A DNA stretch of 64,000 nucleotides from Candidatus Borrarchaeum weybense (GTDB taxonomy: Archaea; Asgardarchaeota; Sifarchaeia; Borrarchaeales; Borrarchaeaceae), in contig JAHQJS010000004.1 in NCBI GenBank assembly GCA_019057385.1, positions 820,627 through 884,626 on the forward strand, read 5' to 3'. The translations under genes were made by a program, and so were the position numbers. Each line of letters begins with the position of its first letter. Position 1 is the stretch's first letter. The notes beneath the pieces are model-generated. The model searched no databases and had not been told where the DNA came from. It saw only the letters and a program-made list of their open reading frames with translations. This document shows, one piece after another, positions 21,898-27,037 of the stretch.

Positions 21898-24255
21898 TCA
21901 TTTTTCTAATAACTTTTTCTTTGACTTAGTTACTGCAGGACAAGATGGGCAGAAATCTGTCAAAAATCTGTAGATCCGTTCAATTTCCAATGAATTAAGA
22001 TCGTAAAGCGTAAATAATAATGTATTAATTCTCTTTAGGTGGTTTTGGATATCAGAATCATTAGCGTTAGCTTCAAGAATTTTGTTAACATTTTTTACAA
22101 TTTCATCAATGATATTTTCTTCTGTTGAGGTTTCTGGTAATTTAAGGGGAAGATATCTCAGAATTTCCCTATATTTTATACTTCCTCCAGGAATTACTAA
22201 TCCCCAAAACATTGCTCGATAGTAAAATTCGGCTAATGGGGAATTTAAATAGGCCAAGGCGTATTTTGTTAAAAGATTCTCACGATCCTCATTGTATTTG
22301 TCCTTTAAAAAAAGTAGATAAAGTGTATTGAGGGCGTAAAAAAACTTTGCATGGTCTGGTTTTGAATCATCCCCACCATCATAGGCTACTGTTAGGAATT
22401 TGCTTGTATTTCTGAAAAATAGTTTTTTTCTATTAAAAATAGACGGTTTTTTGGATAGATAGAGCCTTTCATGATCTGTTTCTGGCTTATATTTAAGATA
22501 TATATGCCTCCAGTTAATTCTGTATCGATCTATATCTAAACCATCAATAATTCTTCGATGGCGTTTTTGTTGTAATGATGACAAGGATTTGTATTGTTCT
22601 TCACTGATTAGAACTAATTTTCGCGTCTCTGGGCTTCCAATTCGTATGCATTGCTCAATCTTAAAGACATCTCCCAATAAAGATACCTCATCTTCCATCT
22701 TTTTAATAATCGAATAATATTTTTTGCCTAAAAATGGAGAAAAGATGTTTTCTTGCGTCATAAAAAAGTAAGATTGGGGGAACATCATTACAATATGTTT
22801 TGGTGTTTCTTTCTCAGGAGAGGGTATAGAACTTAACGAGTGTAAATCGTTTGTCTTGAGAACAACTGAAGTTATCGGATCGACCTTTTTATTAGTCTTT
22901 GTCTTTTGAAAAATGTAAATTCCTACACTAACGTCCTGTTTAAATACTGATTCATATAATGCGAGGTTAATCATTTTTTTGATGCGACACTTTTCTAATA
23001 TGTATTCACGCAATGCTCTCCCATATCCACTATAAACCATAAAAGCGGTTGGTAAAAGAAATCCAAGCATTCCATCAGATTTTAAAAGATCGATCGATCG
23101 TTCTATAAAGAGAACATATAGATTTAGACGTCCTTTTGCAGTTCTAAATTTTTTCTGATAAGACTCTCTCTTTTCTTTTGATATTTGTGTAACACCAACG
23201 TATGGGGGATTTCCTATGATGTAATCAAAAGAATCGTCGTCAAGTCCTGATTCGGTCAGAAAATCAGAACAGAATATCGGAGTTTTAGGAAGTACGAATG
23301 ATGGTTTCTCTTGAAGAGCTTTTTTGTAATAAGGCAATAATTCGAGTACAAACCTTAGTTTTGTCATAAGACAAGAAAAGGGATAGATATCGAGACCTAA
23401 AATCTTTGAGCTATTGAATAACTCCTCTAAAACTTGAGACCATCCGAATAATTCGGCATCTTCTGTCACATCTGAGATATATCGTTTCAAAGCCTCTATT
23501 AGAAAAACTCCACTACCACATGAAGGATCTAACAGTTTCTTTTTGTTCAGTTGATTTCCTTTTAGATAACCAACACTATCTAGAATAATTTTAACTACAG
23601 ATAATGGTGTATAAAACTCTCCTAAGTTTTTTCGAATCTGTCTATCTATTATATGTTGATAAAGTTCACCAAAAATGTCAGTTTCTTGAGATAAAGATGT
23701 TTCTTCTAAGAACTTCATCATGTTACTTAAACCAGTTCTCAATTTCTCTAAATGAGATAACATTCTTTCGGGTACGGCTTTTTCGTTTTCGAATTTTTCA
23801 AAAGGTTCAAACCACCAATCGAATTGTTTTTCGTAGGGTTCACTATAGAGAAGATGAGTATCTATTTCGAAAATGAATTGCACGATATCAGTTAAAGATT
23901 GCTTTTTAGAAGCGAAAGCTGCTTGAGAAAAAGGTAATTTGTATTTCTGTGAGAAAATCGCTAGAATGGATTTGAATAACATAACCAGTAAGGTTTCAAT
24001 ACAAAAAAGTGTTTTTTGCGTACTTTCATTCTTCAAACCCACATCGTTTATTATATTTTTCCATGTGCGAGGTATTATTTTGGGTAGTTTTCCTTTGGAA
24101 TACAGTTTCCATTCAGTAAAAATGATTTGAAGTTTTTTTGAATCATAAAGATGATATTCAAACAAAGCAAGCAAAGATTGAACGACAATGTAAAAAGAAG
24201 AATCCTCTTTTAGAGCAAATATTTTTAAAACTTTGTCCTTTGCAATAGAGTCCAT
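21898..24255 (-). CDS. N6-adenine DNA methyltransferase (Eco57I/TaqI-like) with target recognition domain
   Basis: GEFYTP, LDPSCGSGVFL, IGNPPY, LAYLNS TaqI_C-like region. Confidence 0.9.
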   Translation of the reverse strand: MDSIAKDKVLKIFALKEDSSFYIVVQSLLALFEYHLYDSKKLQIIFTEWKLYSKGKLPKIIPRTWKNIINDVGLKNESTQKTLFCIETLLVMLFKSILAIFSQKYKLPFSQAAFASKKQSLTDIVQFIFEIDTHLLYSEPYEKQFDWWFEPFEKFENEKAVPERMLSHLEKLRTGLSNMMKFLEETSLSQETDIFGELYQHIIDRQIRKNLGEFYTPLSVVKIILDSVGYLKGNQLNKKKLLDPSCGSGVFLIEALKRYISDVTEDAELFGWSQVLEELFNSSKILGLDIYPFSCLMTKLRFVLELLPYYKKALQEKPSFVLPKTPIFCSDFLTESGLDDDSFDYIIGNPPYVGVTQISKEKRESYQKKFRTAKGRLNLYVLFIERSIDLLKSDGMLGFLLPTAFMVYSGYGRALREYILEKCRIKKMINLALYESVFKQDVSVGIYIFQKTKTNKKVDPITSVVLKTNDLHSLSSIPSPEKETPKHIVMMFPQSYFFMTQENIFSPFLGKKYYSIIKKMEDEVSLLGDVFKIEQCIRIGSPETRKLVLISEEQYKSLSSLQQKRHRRIIDGLDIDRYRINWRHIYLKYKPETDHERLYLSKKPSIFNRKKLFFRNTSKFLTVAYDGGDDSKPDHAKFFYALNTLYLLFLKDKYNEDRENLLTKYALAYLNSPLAEFYYRAMFWGLVIPGGSIKYREILRYLPLKLPETSTEENIIDEIVKNVNKILEANANDSDIQNHLKRINTLLFTLYDLNSLEIERIYRFLTDFCPSCPAVTKSKKKLLEK

Positions 24256-24452: not shown

Positions 24453-24752
24453 ATAGCTTTTGAAATGGATGATATTCTAGCAGAATTAGATAAAGAAAAA
24501 CAGGCATTGAGAATTAGCATAGTTAGACGCAAATATGGGAAAAAGGTCACTCTCCTTTCTGGTTTTGGAATTTCAAAAAGTAAGCTCAAACAAATAGCTA
24601 AAAAATTGAAAAAGACGCTTGGTTGCGGAGGTACAGTAACCGAAGTTAATCAAGAACTTATTATTGAACTTCAAGGCGATTGGCGTAATGATCTTCCAGA
24701 GCTTCTAGAAGCTGAGGGGTATAATGCAGAGGAAATAACCATCAGAAAATAG
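24453..24752 (+). CDS. sui1: Translation initiation factor aIF1/SUI1; start either AUA 24453 or AUG 24465
   Basis: RRKYGKKVT, LKKTLGCGGTV, IELQGD. The SD spacing favours ATA at 24453. Confidence 0.9.
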   Translation: MAFEMDDILAELDKEKQALRISIVRRKYGKKVTLLSGFGISKSKLKQIAKKLKKTLGCGGTVTEVNQELIIELQGDWRNDLPELLEAEGYNAEEITIRK

Positions 24753-25135
24753 ATCTAAAAACTTGTTTGCGTTCAGATCAAGAAATCTGTATGTGCTCAA
24801 ATATATCAATATTTGAAGTTAAATTGATCCGTTATGAGCTGAACTTTAGTAAATAAGCTGGTGAAGGGTCAGCAGGTTAAATTTCGTGCAACTACGATAT
24901 TCTCCTCTTTTTCCAATTTTTAAACTCTTTAAACCTCTATTACGTGCATGAGTTATCAATTATATTATATTATATTGAACGTCAAAGTTGTATACTAATT
25001 TTAGTGGTATTCGTGATCATATAAGGTATTTTTTTATAGAAGGATTTGCAATAAAAAGCAGTATTATACTATTTTTTGATGACGAAAAAGGATGTCATGT
25101 TTCTGTAAAAATCGTTTAAGAGAATGATAGGTGAA

Positions 25136-25385
25136 GTCAATTACCCCACCCTGACGGATGGGGCTTGTTCCGTGAGGAGCAAGAGCAATTAGTTGATTAG
25201 CCTAAGAGAGGTCGTGGTAAAACATGGCGGTATCTACGTTATCAGGAGTGTTAAAGAACACACCAAGGGATGCTTCTCTAGTCCCTTGCTCTGTAAATGG
25301 TGGTTTAAACAGAGAGGAAACTCTCAGTGATCATCGTACAGTACTGACTGATAACCTTGGCGAAGAGAACCAACCTACTTTAATA
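25136..25385 (+). ncRNA. omega-RNA (HEARO-type) scaffold; guide is the 5' flank ending at 25135
   Basis: HEARO-like motifs GTCAA.TACCCC..., GTTGATTAGCCT, CTACGTT, ACACC..GGATGC..CT.AGTC, CTTGGCGAAG directly upstream of iscB; 3' end approximate. Confidence 0.85.
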
Positions 25386-25408
25386 TTCGTTAAAGGAGGA
25401 GATAGGAC

Positions 25409-26620
25409 TTGAGAGTACCTATCTATGTCTTAAACATGAGAGGGCAACCGCTCATGCCTACCACACAACCCAAAGGAAAGAAATTATTACACGAAGGCAA
25501 GGCAAAGGTTGTTCAGCGATGCCCTTTTACCATTCAGTTGAACTATGCAACCGGAGAAACCAAACAACCGATTACACTCGGATTGGACATCGGATATACG
25601 AACATCGGATTTAGTGCCAAGACCGAAAAATTAGAAGTCATCAGCGGCACGTTAATCTTACGACAAGACGTCTCTAACAAGCTAGACGAAAAACGGAGGT
25701 ACCGCAAAACTCGTAGAGGTAGACTAGGGTATCGACCACCTCGCTTTAATAACCGAACACGACCTGAAGGCTGGTTAACCCCTAGTACTCAGCATCGACT
25801 TGACTCACATATTCGATTAGTTGAAAAACTTGAAACACTGCTGCCGATCAGCTACAAGAAGGGAGAAGTGGCTAATTTCGACGCTCACAAAATGCAGCAG
25901 CCAGAAATTACAGGAGTCGCATATCAGCAGGGCACACTTCAAGGCTATGAAGTCAAAGAATATCTGTTAGACAAGTGGGGACGTGCATGTGCTTATTGTG
26001 GTAAAACAAACATCCCCTTAGAAGTCGAGCATATCGTCCCGAAAAGCCGAGGTGGAACAGACCGAGTGTCGAATTTGACGTTATCATGTAGGAAATGTAA
26101 CCTTAAAAAAGGAGATCAGACCGCCGAGGAGTTTGGCTATCCTACCATTCAGAAACAGGCAAAGCAGCCTCTTAAAGCACCGGCATGTCTGAATACTATT
26201 CGTTGGAGGATCGTGGAGCAGTTAGGGGCAGAGTATACTTACGGATACGTAACAAAATACCACCGCAATAAGTTAGGGCTGGAAAAGTCGCATGTTAATG
26301 ACGCATTTGTCATTGCCGGCGGCAAAAACCAAGAACGATGCCTACCTTATGAGGTCATGCAAGTGAGGCGTAATAATCGTTCTATACAGACGAATCGAAA
26401 GGGATTTAAACCGTCAATTAGGAGACAGAGGTATCAGTTGCAACCCCACGATGTGGTAAGCTGTAATGGAAAACCATACAAAGTCAAAGGCGTATTCAAT
26501 TATGGAAGATGGGTACGATTATGCGATTCACAGGGAGCAATCGTCAACGCCACGATCAAACACGTGGTGTTGTTGAAATACGGAAAAGGATTAGTATTTA
26601 CGTTTGAAAATAACAACTAA
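25409..26620 (+). CDS. iscB: RNA-guided endonuclease IscB
   Basis: PLMP motif, RuvC-I LGLDIG, Arg-rich RRYRKTRR bridge helix, RuvC-II E, HNH (CAYCG..EVEHIVP..N..CRKCN), RuvC-III SHVNDA. Confidence 0.96.
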   Translation: MRVPIYVLNMRGQPLMPTTQPKGKKLLHEGKAKVVQRCPFTIQLNYATGETKQPITLGLDIGYTNIGFSAKTEKLEVISGTLILRQDVSNKLDEKRRYRKTRRGRLGYRPPRFNNRTRPEGWLTPSTQHRLDSHIRLVEKLETLLPISYKKGEVANFDAHKMQQPEITGVAYQQGTLQGYEVKEYLLDKWGRACAYCGKTNIPLEVEHIVPKSRGGTDRVSNLTLSCRKCNLKKGDQTAEEFGYPTIQKQAKQPLKAPACLNTIRWRIVEQLGAEYTYGYVTKYHRNKLGLEKSHVNDAFVIAGGKNQERCLPYEVMQVRRNNRSIQTNRKGFKPSIRRQRYQLQPHDVVSCNGKPYKVKGVFNYGRWVRLCDSQGAIVNATIKHVVLLKYGKGLVFTFENNN

Positions 26621-26677
26621 AATACCGCAATTCAACTCCACCCTTGTGGATGGAGTCTTCTTGCGGAGGTGAAATAA

Positions 26678-27037
26678 ATGGATGAAGAAAATTCTAATGA
26701 AAATGAAGATAAAATGAAATATGTTAAATATGTTGAATTTTTAGATCTTGATAACATGATTAGAGCAATGGTAAGTTCTAGAGCGCCGTTACTTTTGCAT
26801 ATAGACTTTAATGGAAGGCATATATATTTCCAATCCCAACCAGGATTCAAGGAGACAATTTTTTACTATGTTGAATTACCTGAAGCAATTAATGAAAACT
26901 TTGTTGTGTATGACTTAATGACTGGAAAGATTAGTTTTTCAGACCAGCTACAAATAGACCCAAACCGGAGATCAATTCCGATCGTCGAAATATCGAAACA
27001 AAACATTTTTCCTAAGGAGATCTTAGATTCAAAGTAG
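26678..27037 (+). CDS. Conserved archaeal hypothetical protein
   Basis: 119-aa ORF whose AGGTGA SD is supplied by the IscB element end. Confidence 0.7.
   Translation: MDEENSNENEDKMKYVKYVEFLDLDNMIRAMVSSRAPLLLHIDFNGRHIYFQSQPGFKETIFYYVELPEAINENFVVYDLMTGKISFSDQLQIDPNRRSIPIVEISKQNIFPKEILDSK

Follow-up and report, generated by a model that had tools for sequence, protein, structure and literature searches.

An IscB-type IS200/IS605 element between the Shine-Dalgarno sequence and the start codon of an archaeal gene, with seven nucleotides of host sequence repeated at its far end

The window analysed here, a stretch of 64,000 nt of Candidatus Borrarchaeum weybense (contig JAHQJS010000004.1, positions 820,627 to 884,626 of the forward strand; contig C4 of a genome of 4.18 Mb with 37% G+C), contains a non-autonomous ISC-type element of the IS200/IS605 group that carries an omega-RNA scaffold and an iscB gene and lies between the Shine-Dalgarno (SD) sequence and the ATG of a host gene. 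AGGTGAA occurs at both ends of this element, once just outside it as the host SD with one further nucleotide, and once inside it as the last 7 nt of the insert, where the SD is rebuilt (Table 1). A preliminary description made from the sequence alone had noticed both copies and had recognized an IscB/omega-RNA element of the IS200/IS605 type, an identification borne out by the match to the HEARO RNA, the IscB domains and the structure matches. The product of iscB matches the Pfam families RRXRR (1.5e-56) and HNH (4e-14) and solved IscB structures (1e-47 to 1e-38, best 1.5e-47), with the RuvC/HNH catalytic motifs GLDIG, EVEH..N..CN and HVNDA aligned, and the gene is apparently intact. Hairpins are subterminal at both ends of the element, in place of terminal inverted repeats. 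The omega-RNA scaffold begins at the right end (RE) of the transposon, in the sense of the transposase TnpA, with model position 1 at 25136, and probably extends as far as the iscB start.

The element is placed between the host SD and ATG because empty sites (...GATAGGTGAA|ATAAATGG) are present in two congeneric genomes and one metagenome contig. The site of the first congener, G004, reads ...gatAGGTGAA|ATAAATGGATGAAG, that of the second, G002, reads ...aatAGGTGAA|ATAGATGACTG, and metagenome contig Ga0209427_10013891, found with a pattern of the host untranslated region (UTR), has the G004-type site. Thus the empty site AGGTGA-aataa-ATG predicted in the preliminary description was exactly right, and with it the position of the insertion relative to the SD and start codon. 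The filled site, AGGTGAA-ATAA-ATG, is identical to the empty site from AGGTGAA to ATG, and a search of public metagenomes returned no other alleles of the filled right junction. The product of the host gene has no Pfam match and no reliable atlas match.

The left copy of AGGTGAA is host DNA, since the flanks of more than 20 other copies of the element differ right up to |GTCAA and the HEARO model starts at 25136. A boundary moved by 7 nt, in which AGGTGAA would be the motif cleaved by TnpA at either end, is ruled out, because those flanks vary to |GTCAA and because related ends keep GGAGGTnnn before ATAAA despite unrelated left flanks. The ATAAA that follows the insert is the target-adjacent motif (TAM), since ATAAA is found at the same offset after about three quarters of 49 related ends that were collected by a search without a TAM requirement. 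In IscB elements the guide is found beyond the RE boundary (Meers et al. 2023, bioRxiv 10.1101/2023.03.14.532601), and the predicted guide of this omega-RNA is host sequence in G004, G002 and the one metagenome contig. By sequence logic, the guide and TAM match the donor joint (identical to the empty site) perfectly. At the right junction the TAM is accompanied by 7 nt that match the guide at its TAM-proximal end, as the preliminary description had it.

Table 1. Features of the iscB element and its insertion site, and elements of the same genome that repeat host flank sequence at their ends (coordinates without a contig name are window positions; C4 to C8 are contigs of this genome)
Feature	Coordinates (strand)	Flank-end identity	Evidence or remarks
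ISC-type IS200/IS605 element of the window, non-autonomous	25136-26673	7 nt	1,538 bp between two AGGTGAA copies; empty sites in G004, G002 and metagenome contig
Predicted omega-RNA guide, about 16 nt of host 5' UTR including the host SD	25120..25135 (+)		directly 5' of HEARO model position 1
Left AGGTGAA, host SD (AGGTGA) and 1 nt, outside the element	25129..25135 (+)		sequence; empty sites; complementary to 16S 3' end GGATCACCTCCT
Omega-RNA scaffold, Rfam RF02033 HEARO	25136..25374 (+)		134.7 bits (gathering score 83), E=5e-29, model positions 1-211
RE subterminal imperfect hairpin CCCCACCCTGACGGATGGGG	25144..25163 (+)		8 nt inside boundary; near-identical to RE hairpin of the genome's sole tnpA-bearing IS605
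iscB SD AGGAGGAG	25394..25401 (+)		7 nt upstream of TTG start; PLMP motif in frame 3' of TTG
iscB, 403 aa, TTG start	25409..26620 (+)		RRXRR/PLMP-RuvC region, HNH domain, RuvC-III motifs
Left-end (LE) subterminal imperfect hairpin CTCCACCCTTGTGGATGGAG	26636..26655 (+)		sequence; related ends; predicted fold
LE linker TCTTCTTGCGGAGGTGAA, 18 nt	26656..26673 (+)		TCTTCTTGCGGAGGT family-conserved; final GAA only in this copy
Right AGGTGAA, last 7 nt of the insert, rebuilt SD	26667..26673 (+)		sequence; related ends; unpaired in predicted RNA fold
TAM ATAAA (TTTAT in TnpA sense)	26674..26678 (+)		host DNA; overlaps A of ATG; present in G004 empty site
Host gene, 119 aa, conserved in Asgard archaea	26678..27037 (+)		orthologues 96-97% identical in G004/G002; relatives 26-36% identical in other families
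IscB-type element	C8:113149-111871	10 nt, CGTCATATTT before ATGAA	empty site in G002
Element on C4	C4:1154437-1153053	7 nt	empty site in G002
Autonomous IS605, intact tnpA-tnpB	C7:194108-195886	10 nt	also at orthologous insertion in G004
47-nt element, no nuclease	C5:386423-386469	9 nt	
Element on C4, 254 nt	C4:892922-893175	6 nt	flank differs from G004 empty site

The host motif AGGTGA is complementary to the 16S rRNA 3' end, and SD 5-mers in this genome peak at -12 to -9 before starts, the distance at which the host SD is found. In the predicted RNA fold of the right junction, CCGCAA (26625-26630) pairs with UUGCGG (26660-26665) around the LE hairpin, the stem ends at GCGG, and AGGUGAAAUAAAUG is left unpaired just 3' of it. 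The extra GG of GGAGGTGA is paired in the predicted stem and would probably be unavailable to the ribosome, which would make the usable SD the original one. The conserved SD-like end of the element, GCGGAGGTnAn, restores an SD at the original distance from the ATG, and the insertion was thus probably near-neutral for translation; the preliminary description, which had the filled site keep its SD and spacing, is in agreement with the sequence and with the single-stranded state of this stretch in the predicted fold. Meers et al. (2023) argue that an IscB guide can be made only from a transcript begun outside the element, and they also describe a bias in orientation relative to upstream genes. 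Because the predicted guide is host 5' UTR and an outside transcription start is needed, omega-RNA, iscB and the host gene are likely to be co-transcribed from the host promoter, which the element would borrow for its guide.

The genome contains about 10 full-length relatives of the element, 75-87% identical to it, together with many omega-RNA-only remnants and dozens of hairpin elements of 46-400 nt with the same ends. The preliminary description had supposed that the end might always read GGAGGTGAA, but 13 related ends (7 in this genome and 6 in its congeners) read GGAGGT-TAG, with single TAA, CAG and TAT variants, and none has GAA. The part of the 7-mer that is conserved in the family is therefore AGGTnAn, and the window copy departs from the consensus in the 3 TAM-proximal bases (GAA for TAG). 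In the closest relatives, the left flank and the end of the element have 0-2 nt in common.

Identities between flank and end recur in this genome. For each of 117 hairpin-bearing left ends, the k-mer adjoining it on the outside was sought again, followed by a TAM, within 2.4 kb downstream and with no assumption about the right end, which gave 5 matches for k=7 (mean of shifted controls 0.4), 3 for k=8 (0.1) and 3 for k=9 (0). Subtraction of one local host repeat and addition of a 47-nt element known from end-pairing leaves six cases, the window element among them (Table 1). All six have the arrangement TAM|X-LE...RE|X where filled and TAM|X where empty (TnpA sense), formally a target duplication of 6-10 bp, and empty sites confirm the host origin of the duplicated sequence at C8:113149 and C4:1154437. 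The switch from flank-derived sequence to the conserved sequence of the element falls in a tract of 2-5 shared bases, AGGT in the window element and GATAT, GAGTG, CC and CG elsewhere. Thus the rule that no target duplication is made fails in about 5% of the IS605-type elements of this genome, the remaining elements showing nothing of the kind, and the 7-nt identity of the window element is unlikely to be due to chance. As a general property of IscB elements, flank-end identity is ruled out, for it follows the null distribution across 39 IscB loci outside this genome (Asgard, Methanoperedens, Ignavibacteria, Bacteroidota and Sutterellaceae).

A candidate seventh case (C4:1217832-1218234) was rejected, since the host here has a local repeat (CAGTTAGGT-ATAAAnTnTAGAAAGACCT) in two copies separated by 68 nt, and the insertion of this 335-nt element in one of them mimics a duplication. 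No empty site was found for the mini element at C5:386423, the left flank of which is not syntenic in relatives. The host DNA at the C8:113149 site (C8:111800-113200 compared with locus L176 of G004) holds a short direct repeat, TTCTTCTTAnTATGAC, and G004 seems to have lost the stretch between its copies. At C4:892922-893175 the left flank is GAGTGC, like the element's own end, versus AAGTAC in the G004 empty site (L183); 5 of 17 nt differ, against an overall identity of 93% for the region.

A single match to the Y1 (HUH) transposase family (PF01797) is present in the genome, within the intact tnpA-tnpB IS605 on contig C7. The RE hairpin and transposon-encoded motif (TEM) of this IS605 match those of the iscB element, and its TAM is TTAAA versus ATAAA for the iscB element (iscB sense); its TnpA is, on the resemblance of these ends, a candidate for mobilization of the iscB element in trans. 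The GTCAATTA-hairpin end is the RE in the TnpA sense of the C7 IS605, and the direction of iscB is therefore the reverse of that of tnpA and tnpB, in line with published ISC elements and ISGst. Single-hairpin elements of 46-47 nt (C7:90577-90622, C2:8616-8661, C6:553860-553905 and others), composed of an 8-nt RE linker, a hairpin and an 18-nt LE linker, each before ATAAA, appear to be the smallest possible IS200/IS605 passengers.

The best explanation of the whole, which is probable though well short of assured, is that an ISC element mobilized in trans was inserted before ATAAA between the SD and the ATG with restoration of the SD, and that the 7-nt identity marks a rare junction healed through microhomology. 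The putative source of transposition activity would be a Y1 TnpA, which would insert the element, by the single-strand pathway usual for the group, immediately 5' (iscB sense) of the ATAAA TAM, by chance between the SD AGGTGA and the ATG. Transfer on the RE side would be normal, and the joint on the TAM side (LE) would occasionally be left unsealed by TnpA; the unsealed joint would be healed by short copying of the intact target, followed by re-annealing at a microhomology in the LE, and the 6-10 nt beside the TAM would thereby become a copy of the host sequence across the element. Microhomology-mediated copying on the TAM side is the most likely cause of the identities as far as the sequences of the junctions can tell: it would account for the variable length of the duplications, the microhomology at the switch points and the intact canonical RE junction, and also for the nuclease-free cases and for the fact that only 3 TAM-proximal bases are off consensus in the window copy.

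Four points weigh against this explanation. The healing mechanism would be read from the anatomy of the junctions, no intermediates having been seen. The host flank had to match AGGT, and the A two bases before the TAM, beforehand, which is either the requirement for microhomology or a coincidence. No copy closer than 88% identity was found from which the end as first inserted could be read. The flank at C4:892922 may have been rewritten from the element, so that sequence flow in both directions is possible.

Two other origins of the duplication were considered and set aside. The HNH domain of IscB cleaves the target strand some 3 nt away from the TAM. The non-target strand is nicked 8-11 nt from the TAM (PMC9581776), and fill-in of such a staggered cut is ruled out, since it would duplicate positions -8 to -4, not -7 to -1. 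The choice of an alternative TEM or TAM by TnpA, with the flexible spacing described by Meers et al. (2023), is ruled out because the six duplicated segments share no TEM-like or TAM-like end motif.

Convergence helped by chance is an unlikely account of the window element: both 7-mers would be SD sequences in the same register with the ATG, the end being SD-like by descent (GGAGGT) and its two variable positions having come to agree by luck or drift. AGGTnAn, 5 of the 7 positions, is indeed conserved in the family end, the terminal triplet varies in relatives (TAG, TAA, CAG and TAT), and the window copy is 12-17% diverged from all others; however, AGGTnAn precedes only 34 of the 24,027 ATAAA sites of the genome, the subfamily comprises only about 7 copies, and the five other elements with identities of 6-10 nt are not explicable as SD sequences. 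A homing scar, appealing for the window copy taken singly but with a rather poor case overall, would be left if IscB cut the donor joint after excision by TnpA and repair from the sister copy kept 3 host bases, changing TAG to GAA. For both IscB and TnpB, it has been published that the nuclease cleaves the donor joint and that the element is re-installed by recombination (Meers et al. 2023). The guide and TAM fit the donor joint perfectly, and exactly 3 TAM-proximal bases are off the family consensus, but the match of AGGT still has to be a coincidence, and neither the 9-nt case in a 47-nt element without nuclease or guide nor the 10-nt case at C8:113149 is explained.

Selection after insertion, by which an element ending in GGAGGTTAG would have landed and substitutions restoring the native SD and spacer would have been favoured, is very improbable. 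The change of T to G lengthens the anti-SD pairing to GGAGGTGA and the host gene is conserved across Asgard families, but GGAGGTTAGATAAATG is already a strong and well-spaced SD to which the extra GG, paired in the predicted fold, adds little, the change of G to A has no obvious benefit, and the other duplications are not SD sequences. Equally hard to credit, or slightly more so, is functional self-recognition, in which the TAM and a seed of 7-10 nt would be kept because the IscB or TnpB ribonucleoprotein (RNP) docks at the LE junction without cutting and blocks excision or tunes the neighbouring gene. Four of the six duplications are in elements with omega-RNA and nuclease-type regions, including the only tnpA-bearing IS605, where the mimic is at the LE, on the tnpA side; but the other two cases are without nuclease or guide, the 39 IscB loci elsewhere lack the feature, and one engineered IscB recognizes its target effectively only with about 15 nt (PMC12660989). 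A more general proposal, also unlikely, is that overwriting of the 6-10 nt between the TAM and the LE linker by a copy of the guide-side flank is a side route of IS200/IS605 transposition, and that the resulting mimic of TAM and seed would let the RNP dock on its own LE junction (here over the host SD), damping excision or expression of the neighbour; overwriting of this kind would explain the high variability of the stretch between subfamilies.

The preliminary description had also suggested that insertions might be enriched just upstream of ATGs and that SD-carrying ends might explain the identity. ATAAA-type ends lie within 10 nt of the start of an open reading frame (ORF) of at least 100 codons in 4 of 59 cases, versus 2.8% of non-coding ATAAA sites (p=0.085), and start-codon enrichment of the ATAAA-TAM family in this genome is weak at best. 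An SD match of at least 5 nt within the last 12 nt is present in 15 of the 59 ATAAA-type ends versus a background of 4.2%, but the copies are related, and SD-carrying ends are only suggestive as an adaptation. Eleven IscB loci of Sutterella/Duodenibacillus (L124, L127-L130, L132-L134 and L137-L139) have ends of the form ...cgcggaatttct|ATG, 27 nt after the iscB stop, the ATG being in each locus the start of a different long host ORF, with no SD visible in the element end; one of these ORFs starts MKEVHFDVRGMSCAAC, presumably resembling the N-terminus of a copper ATPase. The interval 3-16 nt before the left boundary is enriched for SD-like 4-mers in the 39 IscB loci of other genomes (13 of 39 versus 13% in shifted controls, p=0.004). 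A junction GAGGTGGTAAT|TATG is found in this genome at an MNT-HEPN pair. IscB families with an ATGA TAM sit on start codons, and the target N|ATGA has been published (Kapitonov et al. 2016, PMC4810608, a paper from which the term 'start codon' is absent), so that parking at start codons is not new.

The closest named relatives of the host gene and of IscB are from Asgard metagenome-assembled genomes, 'Candidatus Borrarchaeum yapensis' and 'Promethearchaeota archaeon'. Upstream of the element are genes for a 785-aa fused methylase-restriction protein of the Eco57I/MmeI type (21898-24255, minus strand) and for SUI1 (aIF1; 24465-24752, plus strand). A stretch of 80 nt (24935-25014), upstream of the host gene, is missing from the otherwise collinear G004 and has no IS605-type hairpin ends. 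The 16S rRNA match (C5:332567-335232) covers 2,666 nt, the model having 1,478 positions, and the gene probably contains one or more large insertions or introns.

The locus shows, base-exact and with empty-site controls, an IscB element inside a translation initiation region with the SD handed back to the host gene. IscB elements are ancestral to Cas9, and their coexistence with their hosts is under active study. The rule that IS200/IS605 elements make no target duplication is broken here and in five other places of the same genome, which points to an alternative way of sealing the TAM side and offers a testable link between the chemistry of the transposase, DNA repair and the target of the nuclease itself. 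Should the duplication turn out to be a repair scar, it could be used as a sequence mark of past abortive or nuclease-assisted events in genomes. The recurrent duplications with empty-site validation are the part that specialists would not have expected.

In comparison with known systems, the window element is a member of the ISC/IscB family with an exceptional junction, and the 7-nt direct repeat of host sequence is no ground for its exclusion. Like the ISC transposons (Kapitonov, Makarova and Koonin 2016, PMC4810608), it is a short, non-autonomous, IscB-only element with subterminal hairpins and a 5'-GTCA start, its iscB is antisense to the tnpB of a sister IS605, its target is short and specific, and its ends are common to the IS605 and the palindrome-associated transposable elements (PATEs) of the same genome. 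Unlike them, with published targets GT|GG, GT|RA and N|ATGA 'without target site duplication', it has the target N|ATAAA and a 7-nt direct repeat of host sequence. What is new relative to the described ISC members is the ATAAA TAM, the SD-like end that restores the host SD and the breach of the no-duplication rule. GstIscB/ISGst of Geobacillus stearothermophilus (Meers et al. 2023) is similar in its RE-bounded omega-RNA with the guide outside, an AT-rich TAM for TnpA and nuclease, a TEM (TTCAC/TTGAC), a single TnpA for several families and PATEs, and a guide that matches the donor joint, but the element described here has an archaeal host, is inserted in a translation initiation region and has an end that restores the SD. 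Flank-end identity is not described by Meers et al. (2023), only a flexible TAM/TEM spacing able to capture flanking bases. The HEARO RNA (RF02033) is matched over its full length (model positions 1-211) with no notable difference. The IscB elements at ATGA start codons (the 11 Sutterellaceae loci) likewise lie between the host SD and the start codon in the orientation of the host gene, but there the start codon itself serves as the TAM and no SD is carried by the right end, whereas the TAM of the window element begins 4 nt before the ATG and the SD comes from the element end.

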